Assembly (NCBI GenBank): GCA_965203355.1
Contig: OZ241889.1
Location: forward strand, 2,496,001 to 2,560,000
Direction of reading: 5' to 3'
Source of the DNA: Candidatus Latescibacterota bacterium
GTDB lineage: Bacteria > Latescibacterota > UBA2968 > UBA8231
Length of the DNA: 64,000 bases
Within the stretch, counting starts at the first letter, position 1, and each line of letters starts with the position of its first letter. Positions 22,425 through 35,299 of the stretch are shown here, one piece after another. The notes under the pieces were generated by a model, which saw only the letters and a program-made list of their open reading frames with translations, did no database searches and had not been told where the DNA came from. The position numbers and the translations under genes are program-made.

Positions 22425-23774
22425 ATGAAACGGCCGTGGAAAGTTCCGTTCCGCAAAAATAGAAAGCTGCAAGCCTGCTTGGCGTTGTCGCTGGCCTTGC
22501 ATCTGCTGGTGATTTTCGGCGTCGCGCACCGCGAACGGGTCACTCAATTTCCCGTCCTCCCGCCGATCATGGTGGAGTTTGCCAAACGGCCGCCGCCGCA
22601 GCGCAGCCTCGCGCGCCGTCAACGGCCTATGCAGCGTCCCTTAGTGCGCCGCCCGGCACTCCAAGCGGCCCCGGTCGCCGCGGTGAGACCCGCCCCTACG
22701 GCGTCGCGTCCACTGCCGGCGTTCAAGACCTCGGATCTGCGGTTGCCGTCGGCGTCGCTACCGGAGCGGCTGGTAATGCCGGTGCCGGATTTCCCGGCTC
22801 GGCACATTGGGCCGCAGATGCGCGCTGGCGCACTCGAAGGGACGCGGCAGGGCGCGGATGAGATTGACTTGGGCTTGGAACTGATGGATGTGCAGGCACT
22901 GGACACGGGTCGGCACCGGGCGATGGTAGTGGTCGATCCGCAAGACCGGCGCAACCTCAAGGGGTTCTTCTATATGTCCGGCGTCAACAGCCTCTCCATT
23001 GAACGGGCTGAAGAGAGTCAACGGGCTGAAAACATACAGGTGCGCTGGTATCACCAGATGCCGCGCCGTCTGGCGGAACGGCGGATGCTGCAAGGGCTGG
23101 CCGATAAGATGACCGCCAAGACGCAGGTCCACGTGGAAGTGCGCGACGCGGTTCGGCTCGACGATCCGCAGCTTTTGCAAGTCCCCTTCGTGCTCATGAC
23201 CGTTGATACCCCCTTTGAGTTTACCGACAGCGAGGCGGCTAATTTGGGCGCGTATTTGACCGGCGGTGGCTTCCTGTTTGCGGATATTAGCCGCATTTTT
23301 TCGTGGCCCGAGTACAACGACGAAGAGCTGGACATTCCGGCGATGCGCGCCCTCATTCGCACTGGCTTCCAAGCGGTGGGCTATCAAGAATGGAAGGACT
23401 GGCAGTTTAAGCGCCTAGCGATAAGCCATCCGATCTATCATTGCTTTTACGATGTCAACAGCTTGCCGCGTGGGATGCGCGACATGCACTTTATCTCTAG
23501 CGGACAGGACTACCCGCCGCGCACGCCGGACTATTTGGAGGGCATCGTGGTCGGGGAGGATTTGGTGGGGGTGTATTCGATGCGCGGCTACGCCGATTTT
23601 TGGGCGGGCATCGGTCGGGAAACGCTGGATTGGTCTGTGGCCAATAATGCGATCAACCACTCGTCGCTCTACAGTGCCGAGGAGCCGTTGGTGTACAATT
23701 TGGGCGTCAATCTCGTGGTGTATGCGTTGACGCGCGAAGGATCATTGGCCCGGCAATTAGTCGATGCGGATTGA
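22425..23774 (+). CDS. DUF4159-like domain protein with a TonB-like membrane anchor and Pro-rich linker
   Basis: N-terminal LALSLALHLL (SxxxH). EAANLGAYLTGGGFLFAD, HPIYHCFYD and LGVNLVVYALT are typical of DUF4159. Confidence 0.75.
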   Translation: MKRPWKVPFRKNRKLQACLALSLALHLLVIFGVAHRERVTQFPVLPPIMVEFAKRPPPQRSLARRQRPMQRPLVRRPALQAAPVAAVRPAPTASRPLPAFKTSDLRLPSASLPERLVMPVPDFPARHIGPQMRAGALEGTRQGADEIDLGLELMDVQALDTGRHRAMVVVDPQDRRNLKGFFYMSGVNSLSIERAEESQRAENIQVRWYHQMPRRLAERRMLQGLADKMTAKTQVHVEVRDAVRLDDPQLLQVPFVLMTVDTPFEFTDSEAANLGAYLTGGGFLFADISRIFSWPEYNDEELDIPAMRALIRTGFQAVGYQEWKDWQFKRLAISHPIYHCFYDVNSLPRGMRDMHFISSGQDYPPRTPDYLEGIVVGEDLVGVYSMRGYADFWAGIGRETLDWSVANNAINHSSLYSAEEPLVYNLGVNLVVYALTREGSLARQLVDAD

Positions 23775-24678
23775 AGATTCCACGCTTGAGGAGCGCAAAA
23801 TTTTCGCCCTGCCAACAGACAAGCTGACGCCGCGCACGGCCGACGAATGCTTCGTCGCGTTTCTCGACTACGCGCACGGCGCGGTGCCCGGGCAGCCCTT
23901 GGAGGTCGATCTGCGTCCCCTGCACTTCATTGATCCCTACGGCTTGGTGGCCTTGTGCTTGATGGCGCGCTACGGGGACTCGCTCTCGTCGCGGGTCGTT
24001 TTTCACCTGCCGCACGCCTTTGCCTTGCGGACCTATCTGGGACGGGTGCGGTTTGCCGCGGCCGTGGACGGGGTTGAACTGGCCGGGCCGACCCTCATCG
24101 TGGATCAGGAGCGGGAAAAGGAAGCAAGCGAGGCCCTGCTGGAAATCACGCGGATTGAGGAGCGGGCGGATATTGAGACCGTGTTGGGCAAAATAGGCCA
24201 GCGCGTCGAGGCGATTCTAGCCGAAGAGTTGCGCTACACCGAGGTGGAGATCAACCAGTTCAAAAACGTCGTTGCCGAGCTGTGTCACAACATTCTCGAC
24301 CACAGCGAAAATTGGGGCTATCTGACGGCCCAGCGCTACTTGGACTCGCGGGTGGGAAAAAAATACGTGGTCATCGGCGTGGGGGACCTCGGTATCGGAA
24401 TCAAGAAGAGCCTGTCGGTGCGCTACGATGCGGCGGATTGGTCGCACGGCACGGCCATACTGAATTCGCTACAGAAGCACTTTTCCCGCGACGCCACGCG
24501 CGGCCTCGGGCTGTATATCGTCAACCAGATTTGCAATCGCTACAACGGCTCGTTGCACATCCGCTCGGGGGACACGCGGGTCTACATTCGCGGCCAGCGG
24601 CACTGGGAACACACTTCGGTCCACTTCCCCGGCACCCAAATCGCCATTGCGCTCCATCAGCGCGAAGGAGGCGAGTAA
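23764..24678 (+). CDS. GHKL/HATPase_c ATP-binding protein with STAS-like N-terminus
   Basis: N-box ELCHNILDHS, G1 DLGIGI and G2 RGLGL. N-terminal VDLRPLHFIDPYG is STAS-like. Confidence 0.8.
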   Translation: MRIEDSTLEERKIFALPTDKLTPRTADECFVAFLDYAHGAVPGQPLEVDLRPLHFIDPYGLVALCLMARYGDSLSSRVVFHLPHAFALRTYLGRVRFAAAVDGVELAGPTLIVDQEREKEASEALLEITRIEERADIETVLGKIGQRVEAILAEELRYTEVEINQFKNVVAELCHNILDHSENWGYLTAQRYLDSRVGKKYVVIGVGDLGIGIKKSLSVRYDAADWSHGTAILNSLQKHFSRDATRGLGLYIVNQICNRYNGSLHIRSGDTRVYIRGQRHWEHTSVHFPGTQIAIALHQREGGE

Positions 24679-24681
24679 GCG

Positions 24682-24816
24682 ATGTTCGGCCAGCATCACA
24701 AGCCCCCCAAACCGCCCCCCTACGAGCCGTGGTTGCTGTTGCTGCTGGCCGTGGTCATCGCCGGCCTCGGCGTGGCCGCATACGTAGCCGCTAGCATTTT
24801 ATTTCCTAGCCGCTAG
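24682..24816 (+). CDS. Small single-pass membrane protein (44 aa), below the ORF-track cutoff
   Basis: MFGQHHKPPKPPPYEPWLLLLLAVVIAGLGVAAYVAASILFPSR. The ATG is 3 nt after the previous stop, with GGAGG upstream. Confidence 0.6.
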   Translation: MFGQHHKPPKPPPYEPWLLLLLAVVIAGLGVAAYVAASILFPSR

Positions 24817-24873
24817 CCCCATCATATTGGTATCTAGCGTATTCCGCATGGCTCATTTTGTGGTAGAAATTGC

Positions 24874-24902
24874 TTGACAGTCGGGAAATATCCGCCTAAG
24901 TT
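24874..24902 (+). promoter_or_regulatory. Sigma70-type promoter
   Basis: TTGACA-17 bp-TAAGTT in an AT-rich gap upstream of the wHTH/SH3/nurA/herA run. Confidence 0.65.
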
Positions 24903-24951
24903 TCCTTAATTGAATACAGTTAAGCTATTTTTAACAGGAAAGGCGCGGCTT

Positions 24952-25542
24952 ATGGATTCAGCCGTTGAAGAGCGCGTACAGCAGCAGGCCATACACCAAG
25001 CTCCCGCATACCTGTTTTCCGGCCAACAGGGCATCCTCAGCGGGCGGCCCCGCGGGGCCGAGTTGCTTGAAGAATTGATGCAGTACCTGCTCAGCGGTCC
25101 AACCGACGCGGCCACGCCGCTCGACTTCTCCCGCGTTTCGTTCATGGATGTCTCGTGCGCCGACGAGATGCTCAACAAGCTGCTCTTGCGCCTGACCAGT
25201 GGCGAGATAGGGCACCGCTACGTGTACATCGCCGGGGCCAATATCTCGGTGCGCGAGACCATTGCGGCTGTGTTGCAGCTTCGCGAGTTGGCCGCACTGT
25301 ACAAAGACGGCGCGCGCGTCGAGGTGCTTGGGGTGCTCAAGACGCCGATGCGCGAGGCACTCGACGTGCTGCTAGCGCATAAGTGCGCGACCTCGGCCGA
25401 GATCGCCGACGCGCTCGGCAAAAACATCAACATCGTCTGCAATCGCCTCAACGCCTTGCAACGCCTCGGCTTGGTGTGCCGCCTGCGCGATGGGTCGGTC
25501 GCCGGCGGGGGGAGGCAATTCTACTATGTCTCGATTGTCTAA
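24952..25542 (+). CDS. STAS-like plus winged-HTH protein
   Basis: LDFSRVSFMDVSCADE is STAS-like. TSAEIADALGKNINIVCNRLNALQRLGLV is a wHTH. RBS AGGAAAGG precedes ATG 24952. Confidence 0.7.
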   Translation: MDSAVEERVQQQAIHQAPAYLFSGQQGILSGRPRGAELLEELMQYLLSGPTDAATPLDFSRVSFMDVSCADEMLNKLLLRLTSGEIGHRYVYIAGANISVRETIAAVLQLRELAALYKDGARVEVLGVLKTPMREALDVLLAHKCATSAEIADALGKNINIVCNRLNALQRLGLVCRLRDGSVAGGGRQFYYVSIV

Positions 25543-26197
25543 GTACGCCCTAGGAGCGGCCTTAGCGGTCGCCTTGGCCTTGGGGGGGGTGGCCGCCAAG
25601 CTGCGCAGCGCCGCCACCTTTGTCGTCGAGGCCAGCGTGGAAAACTTTCGCGCCGCGCCCAACGGCACCAAGCTAGGCACGTTGCTGGCTGGCACGGAGG
25701 TCGAGTCTATCGGCGAGGAGGGCCAATGGGTGCGCTTCCGCGTCGAAGGCTGGGTTTGGGGGCCTTCCTTGGCAGGTTATGGCTCCGAGGATGGCCGCGC
25801 CGCGCCCGAGGAAGAGCCGATCCCACCGCTGCAAGACGAGCGGCCCCGGATCAAAGAACTGGTCAACGACCGCTATGGGGTGTTCTACGGGGTTGGGTTG
25901 GCCGAGGATGTCGGCCGGCTGTGGCTGCGGTTTCGCGTCCGCGACCTCGAGCGCGAGGCGTGGGAGCGGCGCGTCTTTGCCGTGCAACGCGGCGCGGCCG
26001 AGCTATTGCAGGGCCGCGTCGAGTTCCGCGAAATCCGCGTTGAGACCAACCGACCCGACGGCCGCGGCGAGGTGGGCCAATACATGGCCGCGATAGCGGC
26101 CGCCGACTTAGCTAGTGCCGGCGACGATTGGGCGTTGTGGCGGCAGCACGTGCGCTTTTCGATGGATGGGGGCAAAACGTGGGAAGAGGCCGAATAA
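25526..26197 (+). CDS. Exported protein with a bacterial SH3-like domain
   Basis: Signal or TM segment, then ENFRAAPNGTKLGTL..GQWVRFRVEGWVW. Confidence 0.65.
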   Translation: MSRLSKYALGAALAVALALGGVAAKLRSAATFVVEASVENFRAAPNGTKLGTLLAGTEVESIGEEGQWVRFRVEGWVWGPSLAGYGSEDGRAAPEEEPIPPLQDERPRIKELVNDRYGVFYGVGLAEDVGRLWLRFRVRDLEREAWERRVFAVQRGAAELLQGRVEFREIRVETNRPDGRGEVGQYMAAIAAADLASAGDDWALWRQHVRFSMDGGKTWEEAE

Positions 26198-27484
26198 ATG
26201 CGCGCCGCACGCCGGGGCCGATCCAGAGCGGGTCGCAAGGCTAATGCCATGTTGGATCTGTACGCGGTAAAGACCCAAATAGACAGCATGGTGGCCGACG
26301 AGCGCCGCGTCCAAGAGGACTTTCGCTCCAAGCTCGAATTGGCCTTGGCCGAATACCGGCGCTGGCTTCCCGAATGGGAGCGCTTAGCCCGCAAGATCGA
26401 CGAGAGCCGCACCTCTTGGCTGTTGCCCGGCTTGGACGAGGGCTTTGGTGGTGGGATCGACGCGCCCGCCCGCCCGAGCACCATCAGCATCGCCGCCACG
26501 GATGGCTCGCAAATTTTTCCCGACCGCCACGAGATCTCGGCCTGTTTTCTGATCAATATCGGCTACATCCTGCTGCACTATGGCACGGGCGAGAAGCCGC
26601 TGATGAGCAGCAAGCCGTGGCTCTACTACCGGGAGGAGGAAGTTTACGAGGAATGGGGCGGCGCCCGGGTTTTTGTCAATCGCGAGCTCGTGGGCTTCAA
26701 GCGCGGTCTCATGGAGTTCACTGAGTTGGCCGACTTGGCGTTGGCCGCCCACGCCGAGGGGCATCGGACGCTGGCGCTCGCCGATGGTACGCTGATTCTA
26801 TGGAACTTGGAGGGCAAGCCGCAGGACTTCCGCGCCATGCACCTAGCGGCCACGATCGCGGCGATGGACGGGTTGCGCGAGGCGCGGGTGCCGGTGGCTG
26901 GCTACATTAGCCAGCCGGGGAGCCAAGAATTGATCAATGCCCTCAAGCTGGGCCTGTGCCCGCTTGCCGCGGCCAACTGCGACCGCTGCCCCTATCAGGA
27001 AGAAAACCAACTTCACTACACCCGCGAGGAGATCGACGCCTTGAACGGGGATTTGTGGCAGGGCCGCGGCTTGCCGTGCAGTCCCCTTGAGGGGCTCAAC
27101 GACGCGGTCTTGGTGCGGCGAGTGCTGCGCCCCGGGCAGCGCACCCCGCTCTACCGCAGCGCATCCAAAATCCTCGCCGAGTACGGGCCGCATCGCATCT
27201 ACTACTTTTACCTGCACGTAGGAACCGAGATCGGCCGGGTCGAAGTGCCGGAATGGGTGGCGACCGACCGCGAGTTGCTCGGCTTGGTCCACGCCTGTTT
27301 GTGCGACCAAGCCGAAAAGGGCCAGGGCTATCCGGTCGCCTTGGCCGAGGCACACGAGCGCGCTGTGGTGCGCAGCGCCGACCGCGAGGCGTTCTATCGC
27401 TTTTTGCGCGACACCTTTGTCAAAAACGACCTGCAAACCCGCTTGTCAACCAAGAGTTTCAAGAAGCGCCATATTGGCATTTAG
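26198..27484 (+). CDS. nurA: DNA double-strand break repair nuclease NurA
   Basis: AATDGSQI, LADGTL and GYPVALAEAHERAVV. Adjacent to HAS-barrel and HerA genes. The start could be ATG 26249. Confidence 0.88.
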   Translation: MRAARRGRSRAGRKANAMLDLYAVKTQIDSMVADERRVQEDFRSKLELALAEYRRWLPEWERLARKIDESRTSWLLPGLDEGFGGGIDAPARPSTISIAATDGSQIFPDRHEISACFLINIGYILLHYGTGEKPLMSSKPWLYYREEEVYEEWGGARVFVNRELVGFKRGLMEFTELADLALAAHAEGHRTLALADGTLILWNLEGKPQDFRAMHLAATIAAMDGLREARVPVAGYISQPGSQELINALKLGLCPLAAANCDRCPYQEENQLHYTREEIDALNGDLWQGRGLPCSPLEGLNDAVLVRRVLRPGQRTPLYRSASKILAEYGPHRIYYFYLHVGTEIGRVEVPEWVATDRELLGLVHACLCDQAEKGQGYPVALAEAHERAVVRSADREAFYRFLRDTFVKNDLQTRLSTKSFKKRHIGI

Positions 27485-27495
27485 GGAGGCCCATT

Positions 27496-28152
27496 GTGGA
27501 GACCATCAAAGCGCGCGAGCGCAGCCCGTTGAGCCGCTTCCGGCCTGAGTCCCTGCCGCTGCCTAGCGACGCCGAAGACGAGCGGACCCACGTGGGGGAA
27601 GTGGTCGAGAGCAGCACCACCGAGTTGATCGCCCAAGCGCGCGCGCTGCACGGTGCCCCCTCCTTTGGCCAGCTCGTGCGCGTGGAAGCCGCCATGCCGG
27701 TGGTCGGCATTGTATTCAATGTTTTTACGCACTCCATTGAGCCGAACCGCCGGCCCACGGCCTACGGCAAGACCGAAGAGGAACTGCGCCTAGAGCAGCC
27801 GCAAATTTTCGAACTGTTGCGCACCGAGTTCCAAGCCCTCGTCATCGGCTACTTGGACGGCGATGAGGCCGTGCAAATTTTGCCGCCCCAGCCGGCGCAC
27901 ATTCACAGTTTTGTGTACTTGTGCTCAGACGAGCAAGTGCGGGCCTTCACGCGCACTGACGACTATCTGCGCAGCATTCTCAACACGGCCAAAATACCCA
28001 CTGACGAGCTGGTGGTCGCGGTGTTGCGCCACACGGTGCGCGCCCATGCACACGCGCCGTCCTATCTGGTGCAGATGGGCAAGGAGTTGTCGCGACTGCT
28101 CAGCGACGATTACGATCGGCTCAGCTCGATTATCCGCCGGGTGGTCAACTAA
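27496..28152 (+). CDS. Stand-alone HAS-barrel domain protein
   Basis: GEVVESSTTEL..PSFGQLV..PPQPAHIHSFVY. Lies between nurA and herA. GTG start after GGGAGG. Confidence 0.75.
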   Translation: METIKARERSPLSRFRPESLPLPSDAEDERTHVGEVVESSTTELIAQARALHGAPSFGQLVRVEAAMPVVGIVFNVFTHSIEPNRRPTAYGKTEEELRLEQPQIFELLRTEFQALVIGYLDGDEAVQILPPQPAHIHSFVYLCSDEQVRAFTRTDDYLRSILNTAKIPTDELVVAVLRHTVRAHAHAPSYLVQMGKELSRLLSDDYDRLSSIIRRVVN

Positions 28153-28154
28153 CC

Positions 28155-29837
28155 ATGGCAAAACACGCGCACAACCGAGTGCCCGCCGCGCCCGGTCGCG
28201 GAAAGCAGATTGGGGTCATTACCAAAGGCTCGCTAGTCGAGGGGCTGGAGATGAAGCTGGACCCCGAGCAGAATGTCGAGGATATGAAGGCCGGCAAATT
28301 CGTGGTCATCGAGGGCGACAAAAACGATTTCTTTTCCATGGTCACCGACATGCGCCTCGACGCCAACAACCAAGAGATTCTCCTGCATCCGCCGGGCCAA
28401 GAAGACGCGCTCCTGCGCCAAGTGCTCGCCGGCACCAGCACGTACAACATCGTCTCATTGCGGCCCATGCTGATGATGCCCAAGGACGCGGCCGCCGACG
28501 ACGGCCCGCGCCCGGTCAAAGCCATTCCAAGCCATTTCTCCGAGGTCCAAGAGGCCATGGCCGCCGACGTGGCCAAGATTTTCGGCTGCGAGGGCGACGC
28601 CGAGGGCCGCTATTTCAGCATCGGCAACCCGCTCGACATGGACACGCAGGTCTGCCTCGACATGATCCGCTTTGCCGAGCGCTCCAACGGCATCTTTGGC
28701 AAGACCGGCACGGGCAAGTCCTTCCTGACGCGCTTGGCACTGTGCGGGCTGATTCACTACGACAAGGCCGTCAACCTAATCTTCGACATGCACAACGAGT
28801 ACGGGTTTAAGGCCATGAAGGAAAACGGCTCCACCACGACGTTCGTCAAGGGCCTCAAACAGCTTTTTGGCGAGCGGGTGGCGATTTTTTCCCTAGACCC
28901 GCAATCGACCCGCGCGCGCGGCGTGCAGCCGGATCACGAGGTCTATATCTCCTACGACCAGATCACGGTCGAAGACATTGCCCCGCTGCAAGACGAGCTC
29001 AAGCTCAACCCCACGGCCGTGGAGTCGGCCTATTTGGTGTACGCGATTTACAAGGAGCGCTGGCTGAGTACGCTCTTGAAGTTGGAAGGCCCAGATGTGG
29101 AGGAATTTGCCCGCGAGATCGGCGCACACGCCGGGTCTTTAGTGGCCCTGCATCGCAAGCTCAAGCGGCTGGAAAACTTTCCCTTTATGATCGCCAAGTT
29201 GCGGGACGGCGATGTGGTGGACCGCATCATGGCATATCTCGACAAAGGGATCAACGTGGTGCTGGAGTTCGGGCAGCAGACGAGTATGCTGTGCTATTTG
29301 CTGGTGGCCAACATCATCGCCCGGCGCATCCACGAGATGTACGTCAAAAAGAGCGAGCGCTTCTACGCCACCCAACGCCCGGAAGATCAGCCGCGTCAGC
29401 TTATGATCACCATTGAGGAAGCGCACAAGTTCCTCAACCCCACGGCGGCTAAGCAGACCATCTTTGGCACCATTGCCCGCGAGATGCGCAAGTACTATGT
29501 CTCGCTGTTGGTCGTCGATCAGCGGCCGTCGAGCATTGACGACGAGGTGCTTTCGCAGATCGGTACGCGCATCACAGCCCTGCTCAACGACGAGAAGGAC
29601 ATCCAAGCGGTACTCACCGGGGTCAGCGGCACCGAAGGGCTGCGCAGTGTGCTAGCGAGCCTCGACTCCAAGCAACAGGCCCTGATCATCGGCCACGCCG
29701 TGCCCATGCCGGTGGTGATCAAGACCCGCGACTACGATGCCCAGTTCTACAGCGCGATGGGCTGTATGGACGAGCTGTCGGCCGAGAAACGGCGGGAAAA
29801 GGTGGAGCGGGATGTGGCGGCGTTGTTTGGGGAGTAG
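28155..29837 (+). CDS. herA: HerA/FtsK-family ATPase (DUF87)
   Basis: N-terminal HAS barrel; Walker A GKTGTGKS; FDMHNEYG; Walker B ITIEEAH; AREMRKY; DQRPS. Confidence 0.9.
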   Translation: MAKHAHNRVPAAPGRGKQIGVITKGSLVEGLEMKLDPEQNVEDMKAGKFVVIEGDKNDFFSMVTDMRLDANNQEILLHPPGQEDALLRQVLAGTSTYNIVSLRPMLMMPKDAAADDGPRPVKAIPSHFSEVQEAMAADVAKIFGCEGDAEGRYFSIGNPLDMDTQVCLDMIRFAERSNGIFGKTGTGKSFLTRLALCGLIHYDKAVNLIFDMHNEYGFKAMKENGSTTTFVKGLKQLFGERVAIFSLDPQSTRARGVQPDHEVYISYDQITVEDIAPLQDELKLNPTAVESAYLVYAIYKERWLSTLLKLEGPDVEEFAREIGAHAGSLVALHRKLKRLENFPFMIAKLRDGDVVDRIMAYLDKGINVVLEFGQQTSMLCYLLVANIIARRIHEMYVKKSERFYATQRPEDQPRQLMITIEEAHKFLNPTAAKQTIFGTIAREMRKYYVSLLVVDQRPSSIDDEVLSQIGTRITALLNDEKDIQAVLTGVSGTEGLRSVLASLDSKQQALIIGHAVPMPVVIKTRDYDAQFYSAMGCMDELSAEKRREKVERDVAALFGE

Positions 29838-29838
29838 G
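29759..29838 (+). repeat. 80-bp direct repeat, copy 1 (3' end of herA including the stop)
   Basis: GGGCTGTATGGACGAG...TTTGGGGAGTAGG matches 31864-31943 with one mismatch (GCC/GCT). Confidence 0.95.
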
Positions 29839-29845
29839 GGCGGCG

Positions 29846-30706
29846 ATGGAGACGTTTTCGAGCGGACAACACACCATCTACCACGGCGATGCAGTCTGTG
29901 TTCTGGAGTCGACTCGGATTCCAGAGGCTAGCATTGACTTGATATTTGCCGATCCACCGTACAATATCGGCAAGAACTTCAATGGGAGGCGAGACAAATG
30001 GCCCAGCGAAAAGGCGTACTGCGCATGGGTATCCCGCTGGCTTGATCTCTGTGTCCGTAAGCTCAAGCCGACTGGCAGCCTGTACTTAATGTGTGCGACA
30101 CAGTGTTTTGCGCCGTTTGATTTGCTCTTGAGCCAACGCCTAGCCATTCTTTCGCGGATTGTCTGGCACTACGACAGCTCCGGAGTTCAAGCAAAGCGAT
30201 ACTTTGGCTCTCTTTGGGAGCCGATATTTCACTGCGTGAAGGATCCTAAGCATTATACTTTTAATGCAGACGACATCCTCGTTGAGGCCAAAACTGGGGC
30301 GCAGCGCAAACTAATTGACTATCGCAAATCGGTTCCTACCCAATACAAGACTAAAAAGGTGCCCGGCAATGCTTGGTACTTTCCACGAGTACGCTATCGG
30401 ATGTCTGAGTACGAAGAACATCCGACGCAAAAGCCGATTGTACTACTAGAGCGCATTATTGCCGCTAGTTCAAACCCTGGAGATGTCATCCTCGATCCAT
30501 TCGCCGGAACATTCACTTCGGCTCGCGCTGCCGCCAATCTCAACCGGAGAAGTACGAGTATTGAGATTGACGAGGACTATCTAAAGATTGGACTTAGACG
30601 GCTCGGATTGGCTACCGAGTACAAGGGAGGTCGTTTACATCAGCCGCTAAAATCCTACGAAGACAGGTATCCCAACGAGTCCCAAAACCTTACACTTTTC
30701 GAGTAA
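29846..30706 (+). CDS. Beta-class N6-adenine DNA methyltransferase (YhdJ/CcrM-like)
   Basis: DPPY precedes HPTQKP and DPFAGTFTS. YDSSGVQAK, KVPGN and FPRVRYRM segments are YhdJ-like. Confidence 0.9.
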   Translation: METFSSGQHTIYHGDAVCVLESTRIPEASIDLIFADPPYNIGKNFNGRRDKWPSEKAYCAWVSRWLDLCVRKLKPTGSLYLMCATQCFAPFDLLLSQRLAILSRIVWHYDSSGVQAKRYFGSLWEPIFHCVKDPKHYTFNADDILVEAKTGAQRKLIDYRKSVPTQYKTKKVPGNAWYFPRVRYRMSEYEEHPTQKPIVLLERIIAASSNPGDVILDPFAGTFTSARAAANLNRRSTSIEIDEDYLKIGLRRLGLATEYKGGRLHQPLKSYEDRYPNESQNLTLFE

Positions 30707-31860
30707 TGAATCATTCCTTTACTGCTAAAATAATCGAGGAAGTAGGGCGTGAATTTAACGGGCTTGGGAGGACTTTCTTTGAGTTAAGTCCACTTCTTCA
30801 GTATATCAACAAAAAGACAAGATCCGCTAACCGAGGTTCAAAAGCACGAAGTAGTTTTGCCAACCTTTATGCTCTTTACGTCCTGATTGAAGACTACGTG
30901 AACAATGGGTATCTCGAAAAGGGCGACTATGCAGAGTATGAGGGGGCCGACTTTACCCCATTATTGCGCCGGATGCGCGAACTTCCCTTCGGGGCGCGGT
31001 TGCAGAATCACGCGCTCAATAATCGTGCAAATGACGATTTTCACAAGTATTTTCCTGAAGATGATCGACGCCCAATACTTCGAGACGTTTCGAGTCGGAA
31101 ATATTGGATCAATGAGGCATTACTGACTGTCTTTATAGGAGAGCGTAAATACAGCCTTGCCCAAGTAGTACTGCGAGTCATTGACTTTTACGTTGAAACG
31201 AAGCGCACGTCGTTTGCTCAGTTTATTGAAGACTGTGAACGACTGCAGAAAGTAAATGAAAAAGAGAATGATGAAGCAGCAGAATTTATTAGATCGCTGT
31301 TGTCGCCAAAGCGAGATGCTAGACTATTTGAAATAGCGAGTTACGCGATCCTAAAAGCTCATTTTTCGGCAGAAATCGTCTTTATTGGAAAGACTCGCGA
31401 TACTATCGAAAAAGAAGCATTGGAGTTGTTCAAGACAGGACGAACTAATGCTAATGATGGCGGTATTGATTTTGTCATGAGACCGTTGGGTAGGTTTTTT
31501 CAAGTTACAGAAACTCTCGATATAAAAAAATACTTTTTGGACATAGACAAAATAGAGAGGTATCCAATCTCGTTTGTGATTAAGACTACGCTTGAACTCG
31601 ATGAGATTCGCTCGCGCTTAGAAGATGGTGCTAAAGAGCAATATGGAGTGCGTGAGATTGTGCTGCGATATATGGCTGCTATTGAGGAGGTTTTTAACAG
31701 CCCACGATTGATCGCTATTTTGGACGGTTTGGTGCGTCAAGGCCGCGCCACCGAGGTGCTAGACGAAATAATCCGTTGGAGCAAAGTGGAGTTCAATATC
31801 GAAGACGATCTAGATTCTTCTGAGAGTGTCGCTGACGAAGACGAGGATACCAACGATTGA
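30706..31860 (+). CDS. Putative type II restriction endonuclease
   Basis: Coupled to the MTase (TAATG) and AT-rich. GRTNANDGGIDF..FFQV is a nuclease-like core. Confidence 0.75.
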   Translation: MNHSFTAKIIEEVGREFNGLGRTFFELSPLLQYINKKTRSANRGSKARSSFANLYALYVLIEDYVNNGYLEKGDYAEYEGADFTPLLRRMRELPFGARLQNHALNNRANDDFHKYFPEDDRRPILRDVSSRKYWINEALLTVFIGERKYSLAQVVLRVIDFYVETKRTSFAQFIEDCERLQKVNEKENDEAAEFIRSLLSPKRDARLFEIASYAILKAHFSAEIVFIGKTRDTIEKEALELFKTGRTNANDGGIDFVMRPLGRFFQVTETLDIKKYFLDIDKIERYPISFVIKTTLELDEIRSRLEDGAKEQYGVREIVLRYMAAIEEVFNSPRLIAILDGLVRQGRATEVLDEIIRWSKVEFNIEDDLDSSESVADEDEDTND

Positions 31861-31863
31861 AAG

Positions 31864-31943
31864 GGGCTGTATGGACGAGCTGTCGGCTGAGAAACGGCGG
31901 GAAAAGGTGGAGCGGGATGTGGCGGCGTTGTTTGGGGAGTAGG
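31864..31943 (+). repeat. 80-bp direct repeat, copy 2 (orphan herA 3' end)
   Basis: Duplicate of 29759-29838; starts 3 nt after the REase stop. Confidence 0.95.
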
Positions 31944-32215
31944 AAGTGTTGGTCCATGCGCTCAACACCCCAGACGGCGAAGCCTTCAGTTGTGTTCTCG
32001 GGTGTAAAAGCGTTACATGCCGAACAGAAACAATTGTGGTACGCCCATACTGAAAAAGGCTTCTACGTGTCGCCACACGGGTCCCACACCAGCCGGAAAA
32101 AGGACGGGGTTCGCCACCTCAAATGGGGCGAATTCCGCTGGCTCTTCGACGATGAACACACGGCCCACGGATGCCGAGGGGGGCGGGGGCTACTGACCAC
32201 TGACCACGGACGCCG

Positions 32216-35161
32216 CTACCGCAGCAACACCAGCTTGCGCGTGAACACGTCGTCGGCCGTCACCAGCCGATAGAAGTACACGCCGCTGGCCACCGGACGC
32301 CTCAAGTCGTCGTGGCCGTCCCAGTGCAGCCGATGGTAGCCAGCCGACTGCGGCCCTTCGGACAACACCGCCACCCGTTGGCCGCTCAGCGCGAACACTT
32401 CCAGCCGCACCGGACCCGGCTCCAGCAGGAAATACGAAACAACGGTCTCGCTGTTGAACGGATTGGGCGCGTTTTGCCGCAGCTCGGTGCGGCTGGGCCG
32501 GGCCACCCGTTTGCTATGAGCAAAAAAGTCGTCGAAGCCCGCGAACTTGGACGCTTGTCCCGTGGCCGTAAAGGTGAGCACCGTATCCAGCTCGGCGACC
32601 GTGGCCGCAACAGTGTTGGTGCCCGGAGCGGGGCCGAGTCGCAGAAAGGTTCTGACGCGGCCACGGGCATCGGTGAGCACGTGGGTCGCCGACAGGGTCC
32701 CGCCGCCGGCCGTGACAGCAAAGCGGACGACCGCCCCGGCGATGGGCTTGTCGTCTTCATCGAGTACGGAAACGACCAACGGCGCGGCCAGTTGCGCCCC
32801 GGCCAGCCCGGCTTGCCCGTCGCCGGCTACCTTGGCCAGCCTATCGGGAAGTATCCCGCGCGCCGTAGCGGTAAAAGTAACCGTATCAACATCAGTCAGA
32901 CTACGGGGAATCTGCCCGAGGGCCGTAGCAGTAAAAGTAACCGTATCAACATCAGCGACGGTGGCTACCACCGTGTTCGGCCCCAGATTGCGGCCCAGCG
33001 TCAGTATAGTTCTGGCGCGGCCATGGGCATCGGTGAAGGCGGTGGTATCCGAGAGGGTCCCGCCGCCGGCCGTAATAGCAAAGTGGACGACCGCCCCAGC
33101 GATGGGCTTGTCGTCTTCATCGAGTACGGAAACGACCAACGGCGCGGCCAGTTGCGCCCCGGCCAGCCCGGCTTGCCCGTCGCCGGCGACCTTGGCCAGC
33201 CTATCGGGAAGTGTCCCGAGTGCCGTAGCGGTAGCGGTAGCGGTAGCGGTAAAAGTAACCGTGTCAAGACCGGCGACCGTGGCCACCACCGTGTTCGGCC
33301 CCGGCGCCCGGCCCAGCGTCAGCGTACTGTAGGCGCGGCCATTCGATCCAGTGGAGTCGGTGGTATCCGAGAGGGTCCCGCCGCCGGCCGTGACAGCAAA
33401 GCGGACGACCGCCCCGACAAAGAGCTTGCCGTTTTGATCGGACACGGAAACGACAAACGGCTCAGACAACGTGGTGTCGGCTTGGCCTACTTGTCCATCG
33501 CCGGAGAATTTAGTCAAGGTATAGGGCACGGCCTGTTGGACGACGGGGGTTTGCACTGGCTCTCTGACGACGGGGGTTTGCACCGGCTCTCTGACGACGG
33601 GAGTTTGCACCGGCTCTCTGACGACAGGGGTTTGCACCGGCTCTCTGACGACAGGGGTTTGCACCGGCTCGTTGACGACGGGGGTTTGCACCGGCTCATT
33701 GACGACGGGGGCAGTATCCGCTTCGCGCGCCGTAGCGGTAAAAGTAACCGCATCAAGACCGGCGACCGTGGCCTCCACCGTGTTCGGCCCCGGAGTGCTG
33801 CCCAGCGTCAGCGTACTGCGGGCGCGACCATTCGATCCGGTGGAGGCGGTGGCATCCGAAAGCGTCCCACCGCCGGCCGTGACTGAAAAGCGGACGACCG
33901 CTCCGGCAAAGGGCGTGCCGTTTTGATCGGACGCGGAAACGACAAACGGCTCAGACAACGTAGTGCCGGTTTGGCCTACTTGTCCATCACCGGAGACTTT
34001 AGTCAAGGTAGAGACGACAGCAGGCTCCGCTTCAAGCACAAATTCTCTATGGGTTATATTCCCATCCTTATCAACGACCTTGATCTGCATCGCATGCTCG
34101 CTTGTATCGGAAAGACTTGCAGAAGACGAAGATGGAATAGTGCCGTCATACTCGAATTTAACAACGGCCTTTTTCTTTTTTTTGGCTTTCCATCCACGAC
34201 ATGCTACCAATTCATACGATCCAACGCTGATGTGCCCGGTCCGTGTTTTGCTTTGTAGCAACACCTGATGAAGCCCTTTCGAAGCACCGACTTCGAGTTC
34301 GATAGGGACACTCGCTGCTCCCGCCGGATAGGTCAGCGGCGAAGTGAATCTGATGGAAGGACTCTGCTTGCTCTGGCTAACTGAGCTACTGGATTTGAAG
34401 TAGGGATGCACAGCCAAGAGTCTAGCATGACAGGCGGCCAAAGTCACGCCGTTTGCGACAGTCCCCCAGTGAGTACGACCGTACGACATGATGTTGACCC
34501 TGTCGCTGAAGTCGTGCTTCAAACCAAAGGCATGTCCAAATTCATGGACTTGAGACGCCAAAGGTGTTTCTGTGGAATGTATCATCGCATATCCACCACT
34601 CTTCCCCCGGTGGAATCCCATCCCACCTATCCATTTGGATTCGGTCCACTCTTCTTTTTTTAGCGTTAAACGAAAGTCAACGCTGATAAAATAAATGTTC
34701 GCCTCGAGATCAAACGTCTGTCCAATTTCATCTCTCACTTTAGGAGCCCCATTTTCTCCGTAGTTACTTACTGCGTATTGCCCATCGACGCGATGTACCA
34801 GCGGTTCGCCCGATTCATCGGTTTCAAAGCTGAACGTTTTTTTACCGTAGCCATTTGCTTGCATCTGGGCAGCAAAAAAAGCCTGTATCTGCTTTATAGA
34901 GGCTTTCATGCTATTGACCGATGCTTGAATGAAAGGGCTGTTTTTAGGCACGAAGTAAATCATCCGCACCGTCCGCGGTTGGCCTGCTTGCAGGTCCGCT
35001 AGCCGCTTGGCCGCCGGCCGGGGATGATGCTCGGGCTCAAACGGCAGGCAAAAATGCACGCTGCCGGTAGGTTGAGAAGAAGCAGCATGGACGACCGATT
35101 GTGGCGAAAGAATAAGGACGATTAACGCAAAAAAGGTAGCATGACCAATGAGGGTTTTCAT
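32216..35161 (-). CDS. Exported metzincin metallopeptidase with four Big_1-like Ig domains, a Pro/Val/Thr linker and a C-terminal FlgD-Ig domain
   Basis: Signal peptide; HEFGHAFGLKH with Met-turn NIMSY; four KxxGDGQxG..V.F..TAGGGTLS repeats; NAPNPFN..WDGHDD..VASGVYFYRL. Confidence 0.88.
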   Translation of the reverse strand: MKTLIGHATFFALIVLILSPQSVVHAASSQPTGSVHFCLPFEPEHHPRPAAKRLADLQAGQPRTVRMIYFVPKNSPFIQASVNSMKASIKQIQAFFAAQMQANGYGKKTFSFETDESGEPLVHRVDGQYAVSNYGENGAPKVRDEIGQTFDLEANIYFISVDFRLTLKKEEWTESKWIGGMGFHRGKSGGYAMIHSTETPLASQVHEFGHAFGLKHDFSDRVNIMSYGRTHWGTVANGVTLAACHARLLAVHPYFKSSSSVSQSKQSPSIRFTSPLTYPAGAASVPIELEVGASKGLHQVLLQSKTRTGHISVGSYELVACRGWKAKKKKKAVVKFEYDGTIPSSSSASLSDTSEHAMQIKVVDKDGNITHREFVLEAEPAVVSTLTKVSGDGQVGQTGTTLSEPFVVSASDQNGTPFAGAVVRFSVTAGGGTLSDATASTGSNGRARSTLTLGSTPGPNTVEATVAGLDAVTFTATAREADTAPVVNEPVQTPVVNEPVQTPVVREPVQTPVVREPVQTPVVREPVQTPVVREPVQTPVVQQAVPYTLTKFSGDGQVGQADTTLSEPFVVSVSDQNGKLFVGAVVRFAVTAGGGTLSDTTDSTGSNGRAYSTLTLGRAPGPNTVVATVAGLDTVTFTATATATATALGTLPDRLAKVAGDGQAGLAGAQLAAPLVVSVLDEDDKPIAGAVVHFAITAGGGTLSDTTAFTDAHGRARTILTLGRNLGPNTVVATVADVDTVTFTATALGQIPRSLTDVDTVTFTATARGILPDRLAKVAGDGQAGLAGAQLAAPLVVSVLDEDDKPIAGAVVRFAVTAGGGTLSATHVLTDARGRVRTFLRLGPAPGTNTVAATVAELDTVLTFTATGQASKFAGFDDFFAHSKRVARPSRTELRQNAPNPFNSETVVSYFLLEPGPVRLEVFALSGQRVAVLSEGPQSAGYHRLHWDGHDDLRRPVASGVYFYRLVTADDVFTRKLVLLR
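33539..33711 (-). repeat. 27-bp coding tandem repeat, about 6 copies (EPVQTPVV[R/N])
   Basis: Repeated GGTTTGCACCGGCTCTCTGACGACGGG-like units, in frame within the metallopeptidase gene. Confidence 0.92.
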
Positions 35162-35299
35162 GGGGGCACTCCTTTAGCTAGCTAATATCGCGCAAGGACG
35201 AGAAAGCGATTTATGCCCTTTAGGTTAATAATTTTTACAGAGCCTGCGCAAATACGCCAAGCTCGCGGGCGTCGTCGCAGAAAAGCACAAAGGGGTTGT

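Follow-up and report, generated by a model that had tools for sequence, protein, structure and literature searches.

The sequence analyzed is a 64,000 nucleotide (nt) stretch, here termed the window, of contig OZ241889.1 from a Candidatus Latescibacterota bacterium. Directly behind the herA gene of this stretch are two genes that form a predicted restriction-modification (R-M) cassette, and the cassette is bracketed by a direct repeat of the herA 3′ end. herA (positions 28155–29837, plus strand) encodes a 560 amino acid (aa) protein that displays the DUF87/HerA central domain (Pfam, 1.6e-27) and a HAS-barrel. It is followed by M_A (29846–30706, plus strand), a 286 aa open reading frame (ORF) assigned to the N6/N4 DNA methyltransferases (MTases) by Pfam, NCBIfam and PADLOC, and by R_A (30706–31860, plus strand), a 384 aa ORF assigned to the Type II restriction endonucleases (REases) by PADLOC. 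The start of R_A overlaps the stop codon of M_A by one base.

A repeat search of the window shows the 80 nt direct repeat at positions 29759–29838 (copy 1) and 31864–31943 (copy 2), both on the plus strand and at an offset of 2105 nt. Copy 1 consists of the last 79 nt of herA, including the stop codon, plus 1 nt; copy 2 repeats this gene end as non-coding sequence. The copies are identical at 79/80 positions and the sole mismatch is a C at 29783 in copy 1 and a T at 31888 in copy 2. The 2025 nt between them are filled by the two ORFs only and, among the long two-copy repeats in the window, this pair alone spans the cassette interval. M_A begins 8 nt past the herA stop codon at a junction (29830–29845, plus strand) that reads GGGGAGTAGGGGCGGCG, i.e. 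the last herA codons, the stop and the 8 nt. R_A stops 3 nt short of copy 2. The G + C content is 0.37–0.53 over positions 29900–31850 versus 0.57–0.66 in herA and upstream.

Unitigs from the public runs of three studies (X1, X2 and X5) display 0 differences across four junctions: the one between herA and the MTase, that between the REase and copy 2, the passage from copy 2 into the right flank, and copy 1 carrying its own C. The source sample may be among these runs. As the junctions are reproduced without difference, the duplication structure is real. Duplications of the herA end are also found within sister assemblies, with identities of 80/80 in locus L006, 73/77 in L095, 63/64 in L100, 52/55 in L001, 51/51 in L024, 54/56 in L034 and 178/184 in L102. 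The probability that the second copy was produced by mis-assembly is negligible, since the unitigs match every junction, and one metagenome contig and no fewer than seven independent assemblies contain similar duplications; nothing was found in favor of this explanation.

Methyltransferase and endonuclease

M_A matches the Pfam N6_N4_Mtase profile over positions 1–218 of 221 (1.3e-50) and the PADLOC MTase_II model PDLC03299 (1.2e-122). Its alignment displays the DPPY motif (FADPPYNIG) and the S-adenosylmethionine (SAM) binding motif DPFAGT. Judged by its sequence, M_A is predicted to be a beta-class N6/N4 DNA methyltransferase. It also scores 421.7 bits (1.2e-126, cut-off 292) against the NCBIfam equivalog model NF008572/PRK11524, which we take to be the YhdJ model. 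YhdJ methylates ATGCAT in Salmonella (PMC9239280). The score makes M_A similar to the YhdJ-type adenine methyltransferases; YhdJ, however, is an orphan methylase whereas M_A has an endonuclease partner, and the palindrome statistics given below do not confirm ATGCAT for M_A.

R_A is open over its 384 aa, and residues 2–373 match the 382-position PADLOC REase_II profile PDLC03455 (3e-140). Pfam and NCBIfam gave no match to R_A. Among 8000 scored candidates 6238 are relatives of R_A, and several of these are named “restriction endonuclease” by their source. A comparison by sequence with solved structures gave just a chance match (E-value = 0.46). The AlphaFold model, constructed from 30 relatives, has a pLDDT of 82.9 and displays an N-terminal winged-helix-like half and a C-terminal half that resembles restriction nuclease domains. 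VIA-align terms a Z of 8 “middling” and every R_A comparison is below that value: residues ~186–363 were compared with the nuclease domains of MspJI (Z = 6.7), LlaBIII (6.5), N.BspD6I (6.2) and FokI (5.7), and the whole length with EcoT38I (Z = 7.4, rmsd 10.9). A Foldseek search with the model gave no match at E ≤ 0.001. Residues D251, D255, Q266, E269 and K275 are invariant in the 30 relatives and are compatible with a variant PD-(D/E)XK site.

The locus thus displays an MTase with catalytic and SAM-binding motifs and a separate, intact endonuclease of a recognised family, which is the composition of a predicted Type II R-M system. An initial annotation of the window had already described the two genes as an R-M pair, and this holds on the NCBIfam score of the MTase and the PADLOC match of the REase. 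The 80 bp duplication with one mismatch around two low G + C genes, and the distances of 8 nt and 3 nt at its inner edges, were likewise reported there and are reproduced by the repeat search and the ORF coordinates. The reported absence of an integrase or transposase agrees with a Pfam scan of ORFs between positions 23764 and 37319, where no such domain was found. An assembly artefact, which the same annotation had considered as an explanation of the duplication, is contradicted by the unitigs and the sister assemblies.

The site behind herA in related genomes

A HerA search gave 80 loci, 16 of which are sister loci at 95%–98% aa identity. In all close relatives (16 loci) the block at positions 23807–29840 displays about 90% nt identity. 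When the order's 75 genomes were searched at the DNA level, 24 proved ≥91% identical over the 600 nt at the herA 3′ end, and these constitute the sister-species set. Related records are labelled Latescibacterota or Gemmatimonadota.

Five states of the site are found among the 24 genomes. Cassette A, i.e. M_A with R_A, is intact in five (L006, L009, L026, L095 and L096), has M_A cut by a contig end in one (L003) and is decayed in six (L001, L012, L098, L100, L101 and L099). In L001 the R_A sequence is truncated to 60 aa and in L012 it is reduced to a remnant; L098 and L100 display a fusion of M to R through a deletion; R_A is frameshifted in L101, and L099 has stop codons in both genes. R genes are the first to be lost: they are broken in six of the 12 carriers of cassette A, where herA is still 93%–97% identical. 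Of the order's 75 genomes, 11 have R_A, which adjoins M_A and herA in 11/11. A BglII-like R-M system is at the site in four genomes (L005, L010, L011 and L097) and consists of an N6/N4 methylase (M_B) and a BglII-family endonuclease (Pfam 3.2e-35, PADLOC 4.3e-86). One genome (L102) has a Type III Mod/Res pair (PADLOC 6.7e-174 and 6.9e-232) between 184 nt repeats of the herA end that are 97% identical. Two (L024 and L034) have a minus-strand gene for a 265–308 aa protein with a signal-peptide-like start, here termed cargo C or the secreted-protein gene. The site is empty in the remaining five (L002, L004, L007, L008 and L031).

The empty site reads TAGGGGAG followed directly by CTTACTTG, and herA runs directly into the end of a convergent coiled-coil gene. 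All five empty loci have a single copy of the herA end, which continues from TAGGGGAG into CTTACTTGAG. The flank of the empty sites (GGGAGCTTACTTG) also comes after copy 2 in L095, L100, L024 and L034.

Cargo C is on the minus strand wherever it was found (L024:9760–10599, L026:11809–12735, L034:9825–10622, L006:11903–12712 and L103:8270–9109). It gave no Pfam or PADLOC match and its atlas scores are at most 0.87. Three of the five copies display a 14-residue internal duplication, and a G + C-rich hairpin followed by a T run is found at the 3′ end. On the metagenome contig L103, herA is followed by cassette A, then by a fragment of the convergent gene, next by the secreted-protein gene and last by a copy of the herA end; an exact 38 nt search of the metagenome collection gave this one contig only (L103/L104).

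Inheritance of the cassette and its repeats

The window, L095 and L006 display a recognisable junction of the REase stop codon with copy 2, GATTGAAAGG(G)GCT..., and so do L009, L010, L026 and L103, where copy 2 has internal deletions. Since this junction is common to several species, it points to one original insertion. Over 78 pairs the mean pairwise nt distance of M_A is 0.110 versus 0.068 for herA (Spearman 0.36, p = 0.001), and in none of the pairs is the cassette much more similar than herA. The M_A of the window is nearest to that of sister L001. Because the junctions are shared across species and the M_A distances exceed those of herA, cassette A appears to be an old resident, i.e. ancient, mostly vertically inherited and faster-evolving than herA, and not a recent acquisition.

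On a tree of the upstream 5.4 kb, from which the repeat was excluded, the five states need at least eight changes. Sister pairs at 98%–100% SH-aLRT differ in state: L005 (BglII-like) and L024 (cargo C), L026 (cassette A) and L034 (cargo C), and L012 and L102.

The two copies of the repeat have evolved together. Copy 2 of the window has all four substitutions that are unique to its copy 1 among 25 genomes. In L006 two unique changes near the stop codon are common to both copies (80/80), and in L100, L001 and L102 copy 2 also shares the unique substitutions of its own copy 1. The first 12 nt of copy 2 in L006 are diverged and the next 80 nt are identical to copy 1, which is the pattern expected of a conversion tract. 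The simplest reading of these sequences is gene conversion between the copies, which are 2.1 kb apart.

Traces of recombination

Several loci display what may be footprints of recombination between copies. In L006, copy 2 extends 12–15 nt into the herA–M_A junction, including ATGG, and then stops. This is the junction expected of a tandem duplication of the cassette. The five empty sites belong to two clades and have no scar, as would be left by recombination between the copies.

M_B in L005, L010 and L097 is preceded by about 30 nt with homology to the start of M_A, then by its own AAGGAGG and ATG; in L011 the leader before M_B differs. In L010 the last ~30 nt of R_A and a remnant of copy 2 are found behind the BglII-type genes. 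The M_A leader and the R_A remnant suggest that the BglII-like cassette entered the frame of cassette A and was not an independent hit at the herA stop codon. Stacked states are also present. In L012 cassette A is followed by M_B, and here the M_A-like leader follows a remnant of the herA end behind a complete M_A. In L096 cassette A is followed by a remnant of the BglII-type endonuclease gene (R_B). In L102 the first ~70 nt of M_B stand behind copy 2 of the Type III cassette, which suggests that the Type III cassette was laid over the BglII-like state. In L103 the secreted-protein gene made a ~142 nt duplication (64 + 90 nt), and cassette A is at +5 inside the left copy of this duplication.

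The R_B remnant of L096 (genome G043) is ~2066–2164 nt past the herA stop codon, corresponds to residues 88–122 and is behind an intact cassette A. L096 and L012 have a common variant C-terminus of R_A. A 38 nt match to the herA end (87%, E-value = 7.9e-4) is also present far from herA in a sister genome (G004:C1:612046–612083) and may be due to chance.

Expression at the junction

The first recognisable gene of the unit upstream is nurA (26198–27484, plus strand; Pfam NurA, 2.3e-38). Between nurA and herA is a plus-strand ORF listed at 27253–28152 with a HAS-barrel (Pfam 1.2e-05, 25.8 bits against a cut-off of 25.2). Its listed start overlaps nurA and the true start is probably later. This HAS-barrel-only ORF stands beside herA although herA has a HAS-barrel of its own.

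The M_A start codon is 6–12 nt past the herA stop codon in the relatives, compared with the 8 nt in the window. The junction in most relatives reads TAGGGGAGG and displays GGAGG 6–8 nt before the MTase ATG. The first eight bases of this junction are target sequence. The GGAGG would be a ribosome-binding site that is built largely from the target. No terminator-like site was found on the plus strand at positions 29292–33904, and all three R-M cargos are co-oriented with herA. From this arrangement we infer, as the initial annotation had done, that the cassette is co-transcribed by read-through from nurA-herA. Read-through together with a ribosome-binding site built mainly from the host junction would explain the retention of cargo in this orientation at this spot, and the arrangement is in keeping with selection for exactly this position.

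Interpretation and alternatives

The locus is probably best explained as a promoterless two-gene Type II R-M operon, with M first and R second, located in an insertion hot spot ~5 nt past the stop codon of herA, where a long target duplication of the gene's 3′ end flanks it. Insertion of the cassette would predate the split of these species. Its transcription would come from read-through of nurA-herA, and translation of its first gene from a ribosome-binding site mainly of the host junction TAGGGGAG(G). Gene conversion would keep the two repeat copies nearly identical, and the copies would constitute portable homology for RecA-type recombination. The outcomes would be precise loss of the cassette (the empty sites), tandem duplication, and stacking or swapping of cassettes. 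Excision as a circle with one repeat may also occur, and such a circle could integrate again, through a single crossover, at any related herA end.

Several results weigh against this explanation or narrow it. A scan for promoters and terminators gave counts no higher than in shuffled sequences; it covered sigma-70-type promoters only and is uninformative for this phylum. In the Logan (de Bruijn) contigs of runs X1, X2, X5 and X6, position 29838 is never joined to 31944 and neither a circular nor a tandem junction was found, although contigs cannot show such forms because the copies have 55 nt in common, more than the word length. Cassette unitigs are shallower than the herA unitig (149 versus 222.5 in X6, ~20 versus 37.9 in X5); such depths are not shares of cells, and the gap is at most a hint of mixed states. 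The initial proposal that the cassette could excise or amplify through its repeats gains from the comparative footprints, i.e. the tandem junction, nesting and empty sites, but no molecule was seen directly. The nuclease fold of R_A is suggested by the model and is kept at that strength because all Z-scores are below 8. Repeated independent re-duplication in each lineage is a conceivable substitute for gene conversion. Relatives at ~55%–90% HerA identity have housekeeping genes behind herA (45 ORFs at 29 loci), and none of these 29 distant loci has an R-M gene abutting the herA stop codon. Because of this the slot appears to be a property of the close sister clade. The slot also takes cargo without a defence assignment, the secreted-protein gene, and is not reserved for defence. 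The initial annotation had suggested a swappable defence slot: swapping is borne out by the five states in the 24 sister genomes, and both the empty sites (five) and the alternative cargos (BglII-like, Type III and secreted-protein) that were to be looked for in relatives were found, while the restriction to defence does not stand, as one cargo is not a defence gene. That relatives might all have the same genes and no repeats is contradicted by these states and by the repeats in seven sister loci.

Palindrome frequencies also gave no help. ATGCAT occurs once in the window versus 14.1 ± 3.7 expected. It is however only the 13th lowest of the 64 six-base palindromes under the maximal-order Markov expectation, and twelve others are as low or lower. 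Relative to a reversed-word control in five sister genomes its ratios are 0.30–0.63 whatever the cassette state. AGATCT is about twice its reversed-word control in all five genomes, including two carriers of the BglII-like system, and so is not depleted. Palindrome avoidance as a read-out of specificity was rejected for either enzyme, since the ATGCAT depletion is clade-wide and unlinked to cassette state. Other palindromes are nearly absent or scarce in the window under the same expectation: AAGCTT (0 versus 10.9 expected), ACGCGT (1 versus 19.8), GTGCAC (1 versus 14.8), CAGCTG (1 versus 14.3) and TCCGGA (1 versus 10.9). A pool of 15 sister loci (252 kb) likewise contains GTCGAC 8 times versus 169 expected and CTCGAG 8 times versus 137. 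This widespread scarcity suggests a long history under many restriction systems.

A different origin of the variation would be exchange through flanking homology only, where linear DNA enters by a double crossover in herA and the downstream genes, the duplication is a fossil without a role and the similarity of its copies is due to incidental gene conversion. The 91%–95% nt identity of herA across the clade would provide a long left anchor for such exchange. A right-flank variant with the 10 nt insertion GATTCTGGTT is found behind the cassette-A remnant in L009, L010 and L103, which belong to different host clades, and hot spots bounded by core genes and without mobility genes are described in Pseudomonas in the account of PMC10250203. 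This explanation is nevertheless unlikely, as it leaves unexplained the three separate long duplications of one region (80 nt for cassette A, 184 nt for the Type III cassette and ~142 nt for the secreted-protein gene), and also the tandem-junction footprint in L006 and the herA-end remnant before M_B in L012.

Very unlikely is an integrative element mobilised in trans, in which the repeats are the attL and attR sites of a recombinase encoded elsewhere and the cassettes are passengers without an integrase. Integrase-driven islands that integrate at a 3′ end typically duplicate the gene end, a point discussed for tRNA genes in PMC2853133, and the right edge of the duplication is at about +5 past the stop codon for both cassette A and the Type III cassette. 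The length of the duplication and its left edge, however, differ with each cargo, and both copies bear substitutions of the host lineage and not a foreign attP sequence. Pfam gave no integrase or transposase domain in the annotated cargo ORFs or their neighbours, where the genomes as a whole were not searched for integrases, and PADLOC assigned the two ORFs of the Type III cassette to Mod and Res only. A functional coupling, with the R-M systems behind nurA-herA because HerA-NurA works with them as a composite defence or repair module, e.g. in processing restriction breaks, and with a position that is more than a capture of expression, is highly improbable. The presence of three different R-M systems at one gene, and the match of the C-terminal part of HerA to PADLOC HerA models (best 9.8e-34), would be in keeping with coupling. 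Yet 5/24 sister genomes are empty and 2/24 have the unrelated secreted-protein gene, R is broken in half of the cassette-A carriers (6/12) while herA is maintained at 93%–97% identity, the NCBIfam anti-phage HerA models give 66–79 bits against cut-offs of 800–850, and more distant relatives keep nurA-herA beside housekeeping genes.

Three known types of system were considered in their own right and rejected. An anti-phage HerA system of the Sir2-HerA or DUF4297-HerA type is not indicated, since HerA_antiphage scores 78.8 bits against 800 and the partner of herA is nurA (Pfam 2.3e-38), as in the repair-type pair. An integrase-driven island is not indicated as there is no tyrosine or serine recombinase in annotated cargo A, B, C or D; a trans-acting recombinase elsewhere in the genome was not searched for. 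For an integron, no integrase domain is present in ORFs between 23764 and 37319, and the repeat gave no hairpin site on folding (−35.1 kcal/mol versus a shuffle mean of −38.1, z = +0.98).

A more far-reaching reading of the site is tentative and rather doubtful. The herA 3′ end would be a recombinase-free cassette platform, where promoterless R-M units are captured a few nt past the stop codon with host transcription and a host ribosome-binding site. Each capture would duplicate a different length of the herA end, older cassettes would be pushed distally and decay, leaving layers whose order can be read, and a cassette with one of the repeat copies could exit as a circle and integrate again at a related herA end through a single homologous crossover. 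Break processing by NurA-HerA, or breaks that the R-M enzymes make at this convergent gene end, might make the site receptive.

Neighboring sequences

The sequence behind copy 2 in the window differs from the flank of the empty sites (GGGAGCTTACTTG). Positions 31944–35294 form a variable right-hand segment with no BLAST match in the close loci, so that among the relatives examined it is present in this genome alone. Homology to the relatives restarts at about position 35295. The segment contains a minus-strand gene (32216–35161) of 981 aa with peptidase-like, four Big_1 and FlgD_ig domains (Pfam). This gene is at the herA locus in none of the close relatives and displays a 27 nt tandem array (33499–33741, seven copies) and 300 nt repeats. 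Its unitigs are deeper than those of herA in runs X1 and X5 and have loose ends at 31996, so related sequence may be present elsewhere or in other organisms.

At a more distant locus with ~71% HerA identity (L048:10654–13302), an 882 aa Type IIG-like R-M protein (N6_Mtase + Eco57I) is encoded ~1 kb behind herA, after a glycosyltransferase gene.

Comparison with known systems

The insertion of R-M systems accompanied by a long duplication of the target was reportedly first described for Helicobacter pylori. Ever since the class became known, two matters have stood open: the way in which R-M systems move when they lack any mobility gene, and how target duplications of tens to hundreds of bases originate. 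The herA site offers a series of three duplications, three R-M systems, nested and stacked intermediates, decay states and empty sites over 24 species. With a series this unusually complete at one site, the unsolved mechanism becomes testable. The locus also indicates that a defence hot spot of small size can be maintained across speciation, here in an uncultured lineage. If the platform proposed above is true, it would correspond to the “virus-like life cycle” proposed by the Kobayashi group. Among the titles listed in a literature search, none presents herA or nurA as a hot spot for R-M systems.

According to Furuta, Abe and Kobayashi (2010, PMC2853133), four features identify insertion with long target duplication: R and M genes inside, an insert of less than 20 kb, a repeat of more than 30 bp and a single copy of the repeat in a genome without the insert. 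By the same account the class includes all R-M types, is found in several phyla and has cases where the repeats overlap the 3′ end of a gene; amplification through such repeats is noted there, and release and re-infection are stated to lack evidence. The herA cassette belongs to this class, as was first claimed for the window from its sequence: all four features are present, and the empty sites are in 5/24 genomes. It has R and M without a mobility gene between repeats longer than 30 bp, the insert is lower in G + C, insert-free genomes have a single repeat copy, and the repeat and a gene's 3′ end overlap, as in the Haemophilus cases of these authors. The proposed cycle of insertion, amplification and release fits the footprints at herA. 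Unlike the published cases, the herA site took several layered cargos (two Type II, one Type III and one non-defence) in a readable order, the host junction appears to supply the ribosome-binding site, and the duplication outlived speciation and evolves in concert, in an uncultured host lineage.

Allelic substitution of R-M systems, as at the hsd locus of E. coli (described in PMC2853133), is similar in that different R-M types are at one position in related genomes. At herA, however, the replacement by the BglII-like system left the first ~30 nt of cassette A and in L010 also the last ~30 nt, and stacked intermediates survive. The cDHS of Pseudomonas aeruginosa, hot spots bounded by core genes and free of mobile-element markers as presented in PMC10250203, are comparable in that a conserved core gene marks variable defence content among close relatives. 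They differ in that the herA site has one or two small cassettes and not large islands, the co-oriented cargo abuts the stop codon, and the cargo is bracketed by a duplicate of the core-gene end. In outline the site also resembles integron platforms, where a fixed unit upstream drives cassettes that have no promoter, new cargo is placed beside this unit, and older cargo moves to a distal position and decays, as L012, L096, L102 and L010 suggest for herA. The herA locus, however, is without an integrase, attI/attC or a folded recombination site, and thus is not a member of the integron family.

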